Of a DNA stretch of 64,000 nucleotides, positions 38,801 through 48,951 are shown one piece after another; the first letter of the stretch is position 1; every line of letters starts with the position of its first letter. The notes beneath the pieces were generated by a model. That model ran no database searches. It saw only the letters and a program-made list of their open reading frames with translations, and was not told the DNA's origin. A program made the translations under genes and the position numbers. Origin of the DNA: a phage; the sequence record PZ452584.1. One strand, 5' to 3'.

Positions 38801-39103
38801 TTATTTACCTTTAATTACTTTAGCTGCTTCGATAGCCGCTTGCTGAAGGTCATCCATAGACATACCGAATTTAGAAGCAAAGTTATCAATTTTCTTTTCG
38901 ACAGCATTCAAAGGCTTGGCCTGTTTACCTTCATTAGCGCCAGGAAGAGCGAGAATACGCTCTTTGTCAATATAAAGGCTTACAAGTTTCTTACGGTCTT
39001 TATCGGACAAATCATGAAATGAATGGGCCTTTTTATTTATAGCGGCTTCTAATTTACCTGCACTCACTCGCGCTTCAGTAATAAATTCTTGATATGTTTT
39101 CAT
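38801..39103 (-). CDS. ipII: internal protein IPII-like (capsid-targeted)
   Basis: 100 aa, N-terminal capsid-targeting sequence MKTYQEFITEA. Confidence 0.75.
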   Translation of the reverse strand: MKTYQEFITEARVSAGKLEAAINKKAHSFHDLSDKDRKKLVSLYIDKERILALPGANEGKQAKPLNAVEKKIDNFASKFGMSMDDLQQAAIEAAKVIKGK

Positions 39104-39144: not shown

Positions 39145-39741
39145 TTAGGAATTACGGGCTGCATTAGCAACGGCGTAAGCGTACTGAACATTAGCGTCTT
39201 TAAACTTACCTTTAGAGGTATCTATTTCTGCCTTAAAGCCACCTTTAGTCATAACATCGGCAAATTCTTTACGGAAAGCCATTGCATCAAGACCTTTCCA
39301 TGATGATTTATGCTTGGCAAATTCAAGACCTGCGAAGTTGACAGCTTTAGCCAATTTATTATCAATGACCCATTTACCGGCTTTAGGCACAAACTTCGGG
39401 CCTTTCTGTTTAGAGAACAGTTTTAAATTCCAGCGGCGAAGGTCACTGTCGGCTTTAACAAAAGCTGCGTCTAAGTTACTAGCAACAACATCTTCAATAT
39501 GAGCAAATTTAAGTCCGTCAACTTCAATATTTAAATCGGTACGCCAGCGAAGTCCTTCCCAAGCGAAGGCTTTAAAGTCGGAAGCCTTTGTAGCTAAGTA
39601 CCGTTCAATAGGAGCTGTTTTAGGGTCAAAGCCGTTTCCTGGGCGGTCAACACCATTTCCTCGGTAGGTCCACTCATCTTTGTTAATGCCTTTGGCCTTT
39701 ACTACAGAAGCTTCGGCAATAAATTCTTGATATGTTTTCAT
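39145..39741 (-). CDS. ipIII: internal protein IPIII-like (capsid-targeted)
   Basis: 198 aa, N-terminal MKTYQEFIAEA capsid-targeting sequence. Confidence 0.75.
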   Translation of the reverse strand: MKTYQEFIAEASVVKAKGINKDEWTYRGNGVDRPGNGFDPKTAPIERYLATKASDFKAFAWEGLRWRTDLNIEVDGLKFAHIEDVVASNLDAAFVKADSDLRRWNLKLFSKQKGPKFVPKAGKWVIDNKLAKAVNFAGLEFAKHKSSWKGLDAMAFRKEFADVMTKGGFKAEIDTSKGKFKDANVQYAYAVANAARNS

Positions 39742-39800
39742 ATGTTTCCTTTAAATGTAAATATTTTAATTAGTAATTGTCTATTCAAGTAATTGTGAAT

Positions 39801-39830
39801 ATACTATCACAGTTCCAAGAGAAAGTAAAC
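39801..39830 (-). promoter_or_regulatory. sigma70-type early promoter
   Basis: GTTTAC-N18-TAGTAT upstream of ipIII. Confidence 0.45.
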
Positions 39831-39834
39831 AACT

Positions 39835-40803
<969 letters not shown>

Positions 40804-43457: not shown

Positions 43458-43526
43458 TTATTTCTCCGTTTTCTGTATTTGTTTTGATAAGTCTATAATA
43501 ACACCGTCCTTGGTGTTTGTACACAA

Positions 43527-43790
43527 TTATTTCATATTATTGAAATATTCTTCTGCGATTTCATCGTTATCATGGTAAACTTTAGAAGACAGTTTAACAT
43601 AACCTTCAGCAGTGAACATGTTAATCACAACCTTTACAGTATACCACTGACCGTCTTCATTACCCATTACTGCGTAAGTTTCAAACATCGGATGATCAGG
43701 ACCGATAACTTTAATATCATTCACTGTACGACCAAAATCTTCTGAAACACATTTCATAAAGAAGTTGAACAGTTCGCCGTAATTATCCAT
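43527..43790 (-). CDS. hypothetical protein
   Basis: 87 aa from ATG 43788-43790 (SD GGAG). Confidence 0.4.
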   Translation of the reverse strand: MDNYGELFNFFMKCVSEDFGRTVNDIKVIGPDHPMFETYAVMGNEDGQWYTVKVVINMFTAEGYVKLSSKVYHDNDEIAEEYFNNMK

Positions 43791-43833
43791 TTCATTCTCC
43801 AAGTTGTTTTCTGTATCAGTAGTTGATAGTTGT

Positions 43834-43863
43834 ATAGTACCATGGAAGAACAGGGATGTAAAC
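43834..43863 (-). promoter_or_regulatory. sigma70-type early promoter with conserved leader block
   Basis: GTTTAC-N18-TACTAT-ACAACTATCAAC with 11-nt A-tract upstream. Confidence 0.5.
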
Positions 43864-43897
43864 AGTTTTGTGAAAAAAAAAAATTTTTAAAGGTTTT

Positions 43898-43921
43898 GGG
43901 GAATTCTAGGGCAGGGAGGGG
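43898..43921 (+). other. G-quadruplex-type motif G4-N7-G3-N2-G3-N1-G4
   Basis: ggggaattctagggcagggagggg on plus strand in an otherwise AT-rich genome. Confidence 0.4.
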
Positions 43922-44000
43922 AAATCAAAGGATAGGATAATATATTATAAAGGATAGAAACTAAATGATGCCTAGAGAGGCCTGGAAAGGCCTAGATACC

Positions 44001-44029
44001 AAAAAATCCCTATCATTTAGATAGGGATT
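44001..44029 (-). terminator. intrinsic terminator after IP-like gene
   Basis: hairpin AAUCCCUAUC/GAUAGGGAUU followed by U6 on minus-sense RNA. Confidence 0.55.
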
Positions 44030-44034
44030 TAAAA

Positions 44035-44598
44035 TTATTTACCCAGTTTAGTTATTATAGCTTCGGCAGCAGCTTTTAGCTTAGATGCAGTGTTAATACG
44101 ATTTTTAATTTCAGTATACGCATCGCCAAGAACATCAAGGCTGTCAGAATAAACACTTACACTATTGCGTTCGCTATTTGAAATAGAACCTTTAGTTTTA
44201 CGATCAAAATCGGTGTACACGTCTTGAAGATCGCGGGCTGCCTTCTTTGCATCATCCAATGCATCAAGAGCTTTATTCAAAGCATTGACATATTTTTTAG
44301 TGTCAAACATATTCTTAGAAATTTTAACAGGTGCACGTTCAGGAGTAGCTAAGGCAGATTTAGGAACCTGAGCGCCTGATGCTAATTTCTTAGAAATTTT
44401 GAAAAATGCTTTATTGAATTTATTTTCTTGACTCATCGTAAAAGAACTATTATCAATGTTATACATTTCAATAGCTTTAGCTTTCCACTTAAGAAAATCG
44501 CCCCGGTCTTTTGGGTCCAAGTGGAAGAATACTTTAGTAAGATCTGTTTCAGATGGTAATTTTGCTGCTTCGGTTAAAAATTCGGCATAGGTTTTCAT
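44035..44598 (-). CDS. internal-protein-like capsid-targeted protein (187 aa)
   Basis: N-terminal MKTYAEFLTEA resembles IP capsid-targeting sequence; lies upstream of a terminator. Confidence 0.6.
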   Translation of the reverse strand: MKTYAEFLTEAAKLPSETDLTKVFFHLDPKDRGDFLKWKAKAIEMYNIDNSSFTMSQENKFNKAFFKISKKLASGAQVPKSALATPERAPVKISKNMFDTKKYVNALNKALDALDDAKKAARDLQDVYTDFDRKTKGSISNSERNSVSVYSDSLDVLGDAYTEIKNRINTASKLKAAAEAIITKLGK

Positions 44599-44685
44599 TT
44601 AAAATCCTTGAAATAATCTATCGGTTGGTTATTAATTATTTATTACTTTGTTATTATCCGTAACAGCATTCTCTGAGTGATTCAA

Positions 44686-44715
44686 ACTAAAAAGCCCCAA
44701 CCTTTCGGTCGGGGC
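44686..44715 (-). terminator. intrinsic terminator downstream of tRNA/stable-RNA cluster
   Basis: GCCCCGACC-GAAA-GGUUGGGGC followed by UUUUU. Confidence 0.65.
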
Positions 44716-45032
44716 TAAGCCTTGCGGCAACCTTGTCGGGGTTCCACCTGCTAAGGCAAGTGTTTGTACGAAACGCCGGGATTTGAACCCGGTTATTAAG
44801 TAGTTGACGCTACTCAATATTTTTAAAAGGCCATATCTCAACCATATCCGAACGTTCCGTCAAAAACGCTACTCGGCTTACGGCAAAGATATTTCCTCGA
44901 ATCGATAATTCGGTGCGCCGTTTCTGCTGTGATATAAGGGGGCATTAATAAAACATAAAGATTTATTAATGCCAGTCCTTAAACAGGGAGCATCAGTCCG
45001 ACGACTTACCGGTAGCGACCCGGTTTCTTGTT
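44716..45032 (-). ncRNA. putative small stable RNA region (tRNA-like element, no complete tRNA)
   Basis: contains T-arm-like CCGGGTTCAAATCCCGG and several stem-loops between tRNA-Arg and terminator; acceptor stem cannot be completed. Confidence 0.3.
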
Positions 45033-45109
<77 letters not shown>

Positions 45110-45112
45110 TAA

Positions 45113-45778
45113 TTAAAATTTCATTTTTCGACCTTTAAACCATCCTTCTGGAATTGGGTCAGTTTTCTTAATACGTTTAGAAACTTTTTCATCTAATGAA
45201 TGAATCCACATCATACCAAATTGGGAATTCTTTTCACCTTGTTGGTGTTTATTTCTGGCGTGAGATTCTTTCATTTTATTAATAGTTTCAGGAGTATGGG
45301 TCTTACCCAAGAAAGATTTAGTATTTAAAAATTTCTCTCTATACTTAGGATTATCCCAAAGCTGTTTAAACCTTTCTGAACCCATTTTACGATATTTTTC
45401 TTTAAGGTCTAGGTCGTTCTCAAATCTGGTTTTAAAAGCAGCAGCCCCTTTTAAGGAAGCTTCTTTCTTTTTATCCAAATATTCTTTAGTGTTTAAATGG
45501 TCCCAACCACCTTCACCACCTAATTTCAAATTATAAACATCAGGGCGCTTTAAAAACTCTTCAGTCACAATATTCTTTTCTGACTCAAACATAGAGGTTT
45601 TATCGTCAAAGAACTCTAATATTTCTTTAGAGAAATTTTCTATACCATACTTGTCTTGGGCTCTTTTTAATAATTTACCAGAACCCATATATCCATCATC
45701 TAAATTTTCGGTAGAATGAGCGCCTATATAGATTTTATTATTAATTTTATTTGTTATTTTATAAGTGTAATGGAACAT
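45113..45778 (-). mobile_element. segB: GIY-YIG homing endonuclease SegB
   Basis: 221 aa, N-terminal YTYKITNKINNKIYIGAHS GIY-YIG motif; embedded in tRNA cluster as in T4. Confidence 0.85.
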
Positions 45779-45819: not shown

Positions 45820-45891
45820 TGGCCCTGGGTGGAATTGAACCACCATCTGGCGATTATGAGTCGCTTGCTTGAACCTTCCAGCTACAGGGCC
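45820..45891 (-). tRNA. tRNA-Ile (anticodon CAU; Met by anticodon alone)
   Basis: manual fold: acceptor GGCCCUG/CAGGGCC, anticodon loop CUCAUAA, T arm GGUGG-UUCAAUU-CCACC. Confidence 0.75.
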
Positions 45892-45897
45892 TTGATA

Positions 45898-45970
45898 TGC
45901 TGATTGACGGAATCGAACCGCCGACATCCTCATTACAAGTGAGGTGCTCTACCTACTGAGCTAAATCAGC
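45898..45970 (-). tRNA. tRNA-Thr (anticodon UGU)
   Basis: acceptor GCUGAUU/AAUCAGC, anticodon loop CUUGUAA, T loop GGUUCGAUUCC. Confidence 0.8.
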
Positions 45971-45977
45971 GAAATTA

Positions 45978-46064
45978 CGGAGGCGATAGGATTTGAACCT
46001 ATGAGTCGCCGGAGCGACTGCCGGTTTTCAAGACCGGTGCATTAAACCACTCTGCCACGCCTCC
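45978..46064 (-). tRNA. tRNA-Ser (anticodon UGA), long variable arm
   Basis: acceptor GGAGGCG/CGCCUCC, anticodon loop CUUGAAA, T loop GGUUCAAAUCC. Confidence 0.8.
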
Positions 46065-46066
46065 AG

Positions 46067-46140
46067 TCTCCGCGGCAGGATTTGAACCTGCGACATTCTG
46101 CTCCCAAAGCAGACGCTCTACCAAACTGAGCTACACGGAG
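46067..46140 (-). tRNA. tRNA-Pro (anticodon UGG)
   Basis: acceptor CUCCGUG/CGCGGAG, anticodon loop UUUGGGA, T arm GCAGG-UUCAAAU-CCUGC. Confidence 0.8.
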
Positions 46141-46152
46141 TAAATTAAATTT

Positions 46153-46224
<72 letters not shown>

Positions 46225-46230
46225 AAACTT

Positions 46231-46317
46231 TGGTACGAGAAGTGGGACTCGAACCCACAAGGAAATCATTCCGCAGCATTTTAAGTGCTGTGCCTTTACC
46301 AATTTGACCATTCTCGC
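46231..46317 (-). tRNA. tRNA-Leu (anticodon UAA), CCA encoded
   Basis: acceptor GCGAGAA/UUCUCGU, anticodon loop CUUAAAA, long variable arm, T loop GGGUUCGAGUCCC, 3' ACCA. Confidence 0.8.
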
Positions 46318-46318
46318 G

Positions 46319-46391
46319 CTGGGAATAAAGGACTCGAACCTTTGCATCTAGCAGTCAAAGTGCTATGCCTTACCAACTTGGCTAATTCCCA
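46319..46391 (-). tRNA. tRNA-Gln (anticodon UUG)
   Basis: acceptor UGGGAAU/AUUCCCA, anticodon loop CUUUGAC, T loop GGUUCGAGUCC; abuts tRNA-Leu. Confidence 0.8.
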
Positions 46392-47924: not shown

Positions 47925-48182
47925 TTATTTTAAATCTTCTAATCGTTTCTTCATCTTAGAACCATTTTTAGCGATTTCTCCTGCATCGGAGCATAATGCT
48001 AAAAGAGCTTTAACTTTAGTTTGGTCTCCTTTAAAAGATGAAGGATCGACTGCAGCAGCAAGTTCTTTAATACGAGAAAAAAGACGCTCAGCTTCAGCTA
48101 AAGCCATTCCAAGTTTTACTTCCATACCGTGGGAAGATTCAGTGATAGTAGTTTTTGTAGCAAACTCTTTGAAAGTTTTCAT
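47925..48182 (-). CDS. internal-protein-like capsid-targeted protein at ipI locus (85 aa)
   Basis: N-terminal MKTFKEFATK resembles IP capsid-targeting sequence; immediately upstream of 57B. Confidence 0.55.
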   Translation of the reverse strand: MKTFKEFATKTTITESSHGMEVKLGMALAEAERLFSRIKELAAAVDPSSFKGDQTKVKALLALCSDAGEIAKNGSKMKKRLEDLK

Positions 48183-48212
48183 TTTATTTTCCTAATTAAT
48201 TTTGATGAGGTA

Positions 48213-48242
48213 ATAGTATCACTACCTCATCAGCATGTAAAC
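48213..48242 (-). promoter_or_regulatory. sigma70-type early promoter with -10 inside 10-bp inverted repeat
   Basis: GTTTAC-N18-TACTAT; arms TGATGAGGTA (48203-48212) / TACCTCATCA (48223-48232). Confidence 0.5.
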
Positions 48243-48254
48243 AACTTTGTGAAA

Positions 48255-48951
<697 letters not shown>

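Follow-up and report, generated by a model that had tools for sequence, protein, structure and literature searches.

We analysed a 64-kb stretch of a Tequatrovirus (T4-like) phage genome (sequence record PZ452584.1; hereafter the window) and found that a gene between rnaC and e.8, which we call ORF187, probably encodes an internal protein that is packaged into the phage head and processed. ORF187 occupies positions 44035..44598 of the minus strand, the strand that carries the genes of this region and, unless stated otherwise, all window features named below. The evidence consists of the leader that opens its 187-amino-acid (aa) precursor, the late-type promoter box and terminators that set the gene apart as a cassette, and a 157-aa paralogue recovered with purified virions of a related phage. 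The combined explanation that we favour, and regard as likely, is a late-made, head-packaged, gp21-trimmed and injected protein that would probably inhibit type IV restriction.

Leader, promoter and terminators of ORF187

The precursor starts with MKTYAEFLTEAAKLPSE, and its first ten residues, MKTYAEFLTE (44569..44598), constitute a capsid-targeting sequence (CTS) in which Y4, F7, L8 and E10 are kept. According to the mutational work summarised by Kuhn and Thomas, targeting depends mainly on residues 4 and 7, and processing on residues 8 and 10; in experiments reviewed by the same authors, foreign proteins were packaged when given nothing more than the 10-residue CTS. ORF187 retains both the targeting pair (Y4, F7) and the pair required for gp21 cleavage (L8, E10). 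Comparison with the leader of the local ipII gene revealed identity at nine of 11 positions, the differences being Q5A and I8L. When the window ORFs (open reading frames) of at least 40 aa were scanned with a regular expression, a CTS-like N-terminus was recovered in three only, ORF187, ipIII and ipII, with no false positives.

The cleavage-type motif [LIV]-x-E occurs at a single site in ORF187, residues 8-10 (L8-T9-E10, followed by A11), and the predicted gp21 cut falls after Glu10, between 44569 and 44568. The mature protein, predicted to begin at Ala11 with the peptide AAKLPSETDLTK, would comprise 177 aa (19.7 kDa) and would be basic, with an isoelectric point (pI) of 9.5. This value is close to those of the mature IPIII (188 aa, pI 9.7) and IPII (90 aa, pI 9.7) of the window. 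ORF187 thereby shows the features expected of an internal protein: the CTS residues 4 and 7, an (L/I)-x-E site, a late promoter signal (at the level of the motif), and a small, basic, variably present product.

The reality of the gene is hardly in doubt. ORF187 is carried by 165 phage records at 95-99% identity, is intact in at least 160 genomes, and is in every case annotated as "hypothetical protein". Carriers include ECML-134, Shfl2 and Bas/Paracelsus (MZ501096). Comparison with ECML-134, RB69 and CT01 yielded 7-14 synonymous against 2-7 non-synonymous differences, corresponding to a ratio of non-synonymous to synonymous polymorphism (pN/pS) of 0.07-0.13; purifying selection acts on ORF187.

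Upstream of the gene, a Shine-Dalgarno sequence (AAGGA, 44605..44609) lies 6 nt before the ATG and is invariant in an alignment of four phages. A late-promoter box of the A(-13) type, AATAAATA (44637..44644), starts 46 nt before the ATG and is followed by AT-rich sequence; this octamer occurs only twice on the minus strand of the 64 kb, one occurrence being the ORF187 box. Among the 50 T4 late promoters listed by Geiduschek and Kassavetis, 32 carry the perfect TATAAATA and nine carry A(-13), which makes the ORF187 box the commonest natural variant. In the four aligned phages the ATAAATA core upstream of ORF187 is invariant and position -13 is variable. Boxes placed directly after a terminator also precede family members elsewhere: TATAAATA in the phages PG7 and ESh15, CATAAATA in Marfa and GATAAATA in a Logan contig (SRR28624380_555336, our L005). 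The 157-aa paralogue of ECML-134 is preceded by a perfect TATAAATA, and CT01 has the equivalent box in the same place.

A promoter scan of the minus strand from the upstream terminator to the ATG (44599-44700) found no sigma-70-type promoter, and no MotA-type promoter was found upstream of ORF187. The late box is the sole promoter-like element between the upstream terminator and the ORF187 ATG. Transcription of ORF187 is thus probably late and monocistronic, a pattern that would fit a component of the prohead.

Two intrinsic terminators bracket the gene. Its own terminator (44004..44030) combines an 11-bp stem, a 5-nt loop and a T-run (-15.2 kcal/mol, z = -4.85), and the upstream one (44693..44716; -20.3 kcal/mol, z = -4.03) closes the tRNA/rnaD/rnaC unit. 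For both hairpins, none of 200 shuffled sequences folded as well. The upstream terminator isolates the ORF187 cassette from read-through. An earlier, sequence-only reading of this DNA had called a 187-aa ORF starting MKTYAEFLTEA, with a leader like that of IPII and IPIII and a terminator of its own, and had placed it between the tRNA cluster and the e.x-like genes, apart from ipII and ipIII. Each of these points agrees with our results, in which the hairpin reads from 44030 to 44004 and the distance to the ipIII/ipII pair is 4.3 kb.

The PHROG 2280 family and its locus

Profile searching matched residues 1-181 of ORF187 to positions 1-178 of the 178 positions of phrog_2280 (E = 1.2e-53), a family labelled "unknown function". 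A word-indexed search of 5.8 billion proteins returned only relatives of at least 89% identity, together with fragments, and an exhaustive phmmer search of 1.84 billion representatives returned a single distant relative (P0013; 31% identity, E = 5.6e-6). This protein bridges to 351 phage records whose hosts include Escherichia, Klebsiella, Enterobacter, Cronobacter, Serratia, Erwinia and others. Matches to phrog_2280 were also obtained for two distant members, P0013 and P0021, and for the 157-aa paralogue. Homologues in Karamvirus PG7, Marfavirus Marfa and Mosigvirus ESh15 are found in this slot too, with the last tRNA on one side and e.8 on the other, and the family, as judged from these sequences, holds this slot in at least five genera.

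The searches also returned four metagenome-derived proteins (P0010, P0011, P0012 and P0014) that are chimeric or truncated, with ORF187 fragments joined to unrelated sequence. In one example the last 28 residues follow an e.8-like N-terminus (MENEMDNYGELF); in another, residues 97-122 are succeeded by a NudE-like C-terminus. These could be hot-spot recombinants or assembly artefacts.

Pfam returned only spurious helical matches under its threshold (cytochrome b562 scored 17.7 bits where 30 are required), and the NCBIfam profile search of ORF187 gave no match. The sequence-only reading had proposed a possibly lineage-specific injected effector; lineage specificity is not borne out, given the breadth of PHROG 2280 at one slot. 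The central proposal of that reading, an internal-protein-like gene packaged through its CTS, is supported by the key leader residues, the single cleavage site, the family-wide leader, the late box and the particle-associated paralogue.

An alignment of 30 family sequences revealed that members outside the Tequatrovirus type are 17-26% identical to ORF187, while L8 and E10 are conserved in at least 90%. The leader takes the general form M-x-x-[F/Y]-x-[E/D]-[F/I]-L-x-E, often with a second (L/I/V)-x-E thereafter. It also co-varies with lineage: on contig L005, the family member starts with MITFNEFLNES and an adjacent ART-domain protein with MITFKQFLNES. A leader of the FLNES type is found, too, on an internal virion protein of phage ValerieMcCarty03 that was represented by 66 spectrum matches in CsCl-purified virions. 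The conservation of the leader in relatives of about 20% identity, together with its lineage-specific co-variation, points to selection at the level of the protein rather than to a DNA joint.

The ART-domain protein of contig L005 (2092..2526, plus strand) has 144 aa, matches ART-PolyVal and DUF3990, and lies directly downstream of the family member. Judged by its leader, it is a candidate capsid-delivered enzyme, of a size unlike that of Alt.

Family members share a common architecture, consisting of the leader, a small N-terminal domain, a variable K/P/A-rich linker and a C-terminal helical domain that exists in at least two versions. AlphaFold2 (AF2) modelling of ORF187 with the family alignment reached a mean predicted local distance difference test (pLDDT) score of 79.6; the single-sequence model (pLDDT 64) was too poor for use. 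In the former, leader residues 1-11 are disordered (pLDDT 43), and residues 17-73 (44380..44550), the most conserved part of the family, form a small helical domain (pLDDT ~77-87). A flexible linker follows (residues 74-100, 44299..44379; pLDDT <50 for residues 78-89), and then a very confidently predicted three-helix bundle (residues 101-186, 44041..44298). In other genera, the family alignment shows a much longer, histone-H1-like linker with a KPAxPK-type tract. Structure comparison of both ORF187 domains gave no informative match, and the family profile returned only weak coiled-coil matches among PDB sequences (occludin, E = 0.007). No enzymatic domain or fold was found in ORF187 by Pfam, NCBIfam or structure comparison, both domains being small helical bundles.

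Genomic comparison revealed that the cassette is variably present among close relatives. A segment of ~687 bp (44001..44687) is absent from T4 by alignment, and ORF187 is likewise missing from T2, T6 and Yersinia phage fD1 according to gene maps, gene order and, for T2, the ORF listing. In T4, the terminator after rnaC (...GGTTGGGGCTTTTT) joins GGTATCTAAGCC directly, upstream of e.8. In the window, the whole cassette parts these two sequences, and its distal end is the gene's own terminator (...ATAGGGATTTTTT); the corresponding end in other phages reads AGGGCTTTTT. The segment ends within the T-runs of both terminators (GGGGCTTTTT; AGGG(A/C)TTTTT), the exact breakpoints being ambiguous by a few bases. 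Altogether, 315 phage records match the 801 bases around ORF187 at 90-99% identity, the best being Shigella phage ESh28 (97.4%), and about half of these related records (165) carry the gene.

Exchange across genera is also apparent. RB69 (Mosigvirus) has the gene at 96% nucleotide identity, split by a 1-bp deletion (frameshift) into ORF148c and ORF149c; the gene may be a pseudogene there, or the 2003 sequence may be wrong at this point. From rnaD through rnaC and the cassette to e.8, a 1.5-kb block of the window (43518..45033) shares 94.6% identity with RB69 (L003 2566..4075), against 69-85% in its flanks, indicating a recent mosaic exchange between Tequatrovirus and Mosigvirus. Shigella phage CT01 (L004 2501..2989) carries the gene with an in-frame 75-bp deletion of 25 residues (KISKKLASGAQVPKSALATPERAPV), which removes the last five residues of the N-terminal domain and 20 of the 27 linker residues. 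This suggests a linker that can be dispensed with or tuned.

In the same hyperplastic stretch, T2 has another small insertion, an extra ORF of 116 aa between rnaD and tRNA-Arg (L011 7003..7353, minus strand) that is absent in T4 and in the window. Product names in this region of the T2 record are clearly mis-transferred.

Scanning related loci for CTS-like N-termini uncovered the paralogue of 157 aa in ECML-134 (ECML134_132; L009 and L001 denote the loci of fD1 and ECML-134, here L001 7824..8297, minus strand) and in fD1 (g140; L009 7943..8416, minus strand). It starts with MKSYTQFLNEAVLNEASS (MKSYTQFLNEA), matches phrog_2280 at 5.5e-60, and aligns over its full length with the ORF187 family alignment (hhalign 95%, E = 3.6e-8). 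The paralogue is present in 405 phage records and absent from the window. In ECML-134 it is the immediate upstream neighbour of the ORF187 homologue, and in fD1 it is the only such gene at the locus.

The ECML-134 locus repeats one design. The terminator after rnaC is followed by TATAAATA, a Shine-Dalgarno sequence and the 157-aa ORF; a near-identical second copy of the terminator is followed by AATAAATA, a Shine-Dalgarno sequence, ORF187 and a third terminator. The locus is found in several states, namely empty (T4, T2, T6), with the paralogue only (fD1), with ORF187 only (the window) and with both (ECML-134). We read the rnaC-e.8 gap as a third Ip locus, which on this sequence evidence would be a short array of zero to two late-promoter cassettes parted by hairpins. 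The repeated terminator hairpins may serve as short homologies for the gain and loss of cassettes. In Jiaodavirus ValerieMcCarty03, the family was not found at the rnaC-e.8 locus.

The product of g140 was scored as particle-associated in purified fD1 virions at the strict threshold of liquid chromatography-tandem mass spectrometry (LC-MS/MS); T4 has no counterpart of it. The product of the next gene downstream, g139 (e.8), is missing from the particle-associated set. Candidate processed N-termini of g140 at L-N-E|A are AVLNEASSTEIQAVAK or ASSTEIQAVAK.

Proposed role and competing explanations

Late in infection, gp55-directed RNA polymerase would start at the AATAAATA box (44644..44637), as motifs conserved in every lineage examined suggest, and would produce a monocistronic mRNA of ~0.63 kb bounded by the rnaC-following terminator and the gene's own terminator. 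Within the prohead, the CTS would then draw the precursor into the scaffolding core formed by gp22, a step suggested by the critical residues and supported by the virion-detected paralogue. Judged by the motif, gp21 would cut after Glu10 (L-T-E|A) and leave the 177-aa, 19.7-kDa protein of pI 9.5 in the head. Genes 21 and 22, which encode the protease (gp21) and the scaffolding core (gp22) of the prohead, should lie outside the window by T4 synteny, and their presence is inferred from membership in Tequatrovirus (96-97% identity to ECML-134 and ESh28). By analogy with IPI-III, the basic two-domain protein with its K/P/A-rich linker would stay with the packaged DNA and be ejected into the cell. 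There it might act as a stoichiometric binder rather than an enzyme, and the likeliest target, again by analogy, would be a variant of a modification-dependent (type IV) restriction nuclease, or else a comparable first-response defence.

Silas et al. (2025) reported that Ip1, Ip2 and Ip3 each inhibit a distinct GmrSD, and described two Ip loci. Ip1 acts against the GmrSD of CT596, Bas37_0260 inhibits McrBC, and IPIII lacking its CTS is active from the cytoplasm. Because the 2025 work ties each T4 internal protein to one type IV enzyme, every CTS protein becomes a candidate of this kind, and by this analogy ORF187 is a promising candidate: it could be a new inhibitor of bacterial defence. That it is an anti-defence effector directed specifically at a type IV restriction enzyme is, taken by itself, a plausible yet tentative proposal. 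Its absence from T4, T2, T6 and fD1, its presence in about half of the related records and its position in a mosaic block agree with the accessory, arms-race-like behaviour that such a role would entail.

Several observations weigh against this interpretation. The virion detection concerns the paralogue g140 and not ORF187 itself, and pairwise BLASTP between the two aligns the leader alone, their relationship resting on profile methods. In fD1, 113-137 phage proteins, or about half of the proteome, counted as particle-associated, and the mass-spectrometric evidence for g140 is thus supportive rather than stringent. For carriers of ORF187, we found no virion mass spectrometry: the paper on fPS-65 and fPS-90 contains none, and that on Isf-Pm2 reports sodium dodecyl sulfate-polyacrylamide gel electrophoresis (SDS-PAGE) only. 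The putative ORF187 promoter is a variant box known from its motif alone, and the gene has no early-type promoter, unlike ipIII and the ipI-locus gene of the window, so that its expression pattern would differ from that of the classical internal proteins. Neither the sequence nor the predicted fold points to a target. Finally, residence at one fixed locus across genera is more conservative than the behaviour of the ipI hot-spot, and could mean a role related to the head or to DNA.

This last point leads to the strongest alternative, in which ORF187 would be packaged and processed as an auxiliary core or DNA-associated head protein without any part in anti-defence. It might offset charge, help to keep the condensed DNA in order, or accompany the DNA and shield it at ejection, and be dispensable in the laboratory. 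The basic mature protein, the K/P/A-rich linker with its long KPAxPK-type counterpart in other genera (resembling a histone H1 tail), the single syntenic slot in at least five genera and the lack of a recognisable inhibitor or enzyme fold are all compatible with such a function. However, T4, T2, T6 and fD1 build normal heads without the gene, which even close relatives carry in only ~50% of cases; the mature part diverges fast (17-26% identity); the copy number at the locus varies among 0, 1 and 2; and CT01 has lost 20 of the 27 linker residues in frame. We consider a DNA-associated or structural head role unlikely on this balance, yet the histone-like basic linker and the fixed locus make it a serious rival.

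A second alternative holds that ORF187 is an unpackaged, cytoplasmic late protein, its CTS-like N-terminus being a shared 5' module such as a translation-initiation region or a recombination joint. T4-type phages do shuffle short modules among accessory genes, and the mature part of ORF187 is unrelated to IPI-III. Against this, the positions retained are exactly those needed for targeting and cleavage, and the leader persists at ~20% identity and co-varies with lineage-specific leaders. A family member (fD1 g140) was found in virions, and in the reviewed experiments a CTS of ten residues packaged foreign proteins unaided. This explanation appears quite improbable.

That ORF187 is non-functional, a chance ORF or a decaying remnant, is refuted as far as sequence evidence reaches and has a negligible probability: the frameshifted RB69 copy and the "hypothetical" label in every record are outweighed by a pN/pS of 0.07-0.13, intact copies in at least 160 genomes, a good Shine-Dalgarno sequence, promoter box and terminator, an AF2 model at pLDDT 79.6 with the family alignment, and the full-length PHROG match.

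We therefore retain the reading of ORF187 as an injected internal protein with a probable anti-restriction role. In principle it is not surprising, as CTS-bearing, gp21-processed, injected internal proteins are a known class. In the sources that we searched, PHROG 2280 appears to be new as an internal-protein family, about ten historical ip genes from ipI-region studies being outside this comparison, and those sources do not list the rnaC-e.8 gap among the Ip loci, of which Silas et al. (2025) give two. ORF187 lies outside both recognised Ip loci. Our literature search returned nothing on RB69ORF149c, RB69ORF148c, Shfl2p135 or phrog_2280, and no MKTY-type sequence was present in the supplements of Silas et al. 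(2025). The classical T-even phages T2, T4 and T6 lack the gene, which is probably why the classical internal-protein literature missed it.

Each new CTS-bearing protein is a candidate key to one host defence and a candidate determinant of host range in therapeutic T4-like phages. T2, T4 and T6 are natural null backgrounds and hence allow simple gain-of-function testing, and the arrangement of the cassette, in which two terminators enclose a late box and a CTS ORF, offers a plain rule for finding further proteins that T4-like phages inject. A wider generalisation is possible, if somewhat doubtful as a whole: the rnaC-e.8 gap might be a dedicated third Ip locus of Tevenvirinae and close relatives, and PHROG 2280 a new class of capsid-delivered effectors. 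These would be bound to DNA and directed at a defence other than the GmrSD variants met by Ip1-3, with specificity supplied by alternative C-terminal domains and zero to two paralogues.

Neighbouring genes and comparison with known systems

Comparison with annotated T4 established the gene order of the region. Along the minus strand, the order starts with a cluster of seven tRNAs (46391..45820), followed by a segB-like gene for a GIY-YIG homing endonuclease of 221 aa (45113..45778), located within the tRNA cluster as in T4, and by tRNA-Arg (45109..45033). Next come rnaD (45031..44912) and rnaC (44905..44767), both placed by alignment with T4, the terminator, and ORF187 with its own terminator. 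The order continues with e.8 (43802..43527), e.6, other e.x genes, gene e (40329..39835), ipIII and ipII. ECML-134 matches only part of the segB-like gene, at 87% identity, indicating that the endonuclease region is variable too.

The ipIII homologue (39145..39741) has the leader MKTYQEFIAEA and matches phrog_5341, "internal virion protein" (1.3e-115); the ipII homologue (38801..39103) has the leader MKTYQEFITEA and matches phrog_7857 (4.5e-55). On the other side of the tRNA cluster, the gene at the ipI locus (47925..48182) encodes an internal head protein of 85 aa (phrog_3499, "internal head protein", 1.2e-49). This gene differs from T4 ipI and has a divergent leader, MKTFKEFATKTTITE|S. Its product has no L/I-x-E at residues 8-10, the first cleavage-type motif being ITE at residues 13-15.

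T4 early-type promoters, made up of GTTTAC, a spacer of 17-18 nt and a -10 element, precede ipIII, the ipI-locus gene and e.8 in the window; for the two internal-protein genes the last element is TAnnAT-like. The regions upstream of ipIII (39742..39900) and of the ipI-locus gene (48183..48300) contain no TATAAATA within 200 nt, and gene e, just upstream of ipIII, has two such boxes. On this arrangement, IPIII and IPII would be supplied late only if transcription from the late promoters of gene e reads through.

ORF187 resembles IPII and IPIII, with which it shares a nearly identical CTS leader, an L/I-x-E|A site at residues 8-10, a small basic mature product and a non-essential, variably present gene. 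It differs from them in a mature part without detectable homology, composed of two helical domains and a linker, and in its location in the rnaC-e.8 gap rather than beside gene e. Its own promoter is late-type with no early-type element, whereas that of ipIII here is early-type. Orthology to IPI, IPII or IPIII was rejected: hhalign against the ipIII and ipII products of the window aligns the leader only (probability 20-22%), and the PHROGs differ. Ip2 and Ip3 inhibit defined GmrSD variants, while an anti-restriction role for ORF187 is suggested by analogy alone.

T4 IPI (Ip1) and other ipI-locus proteins, including Bas37_0260, are likewise CTS-bearing, are injected and are encoded at a variable accessory locus near the tRNA cluster; as inhibitors of type IV restriction they are the functional model for ORF187. 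Their locus, however, is flanked by 57B and tRNA.4 and lies beyond the cluster as seen from ORF187, and its proteins are much shorter (77-102 aa) and unrelated in sequence. Many alternative ip genes have been known since Repoila et al. (1994), according to papers that cite that work. Alt and other head-delivered enzymes are also capsid-delivered and gp21-processed, and differ from ORF187 in having an enzymatic domain.

Another close counterpart is the 157-aa paralogue, which has in common with ORF187 the family, the locus, the order of terminator, late box, CTS ORF and terminator, the order of domains and a PAK-type linker. It is 30 aa shorter, has a perfect TATAAATA box and is found in 405 rather than 165 records. 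Near-identical copies of the rnaC-following terminator stand on both sides of its cassette, whereas the distal terminator of ORF187 is a different hairpin.

At the level of gene organisation, ORF187 recalls the promoter early stem-loop (PeSL) cassettes of Arbiol et al. (2010), in which a single accessory ORF in a hyperplastic region stands between stem-loop terminators and brings a promoter and a terminator of its own. PeSLs are defined by a strong sigma-70 early promoter, in contrast to the late, TATAAATA-type box at ORF187. With this late-type promoter and no sigma-70 match, ORF187 was rejected as a member of the class and is PeSL-like in its working only. The likeness extends to how such cassettes come and go: PeSLs are present or absent through recombination between flanking hairpins, and hairpins likewise stand at both ends of the indel that separates the window from T4.

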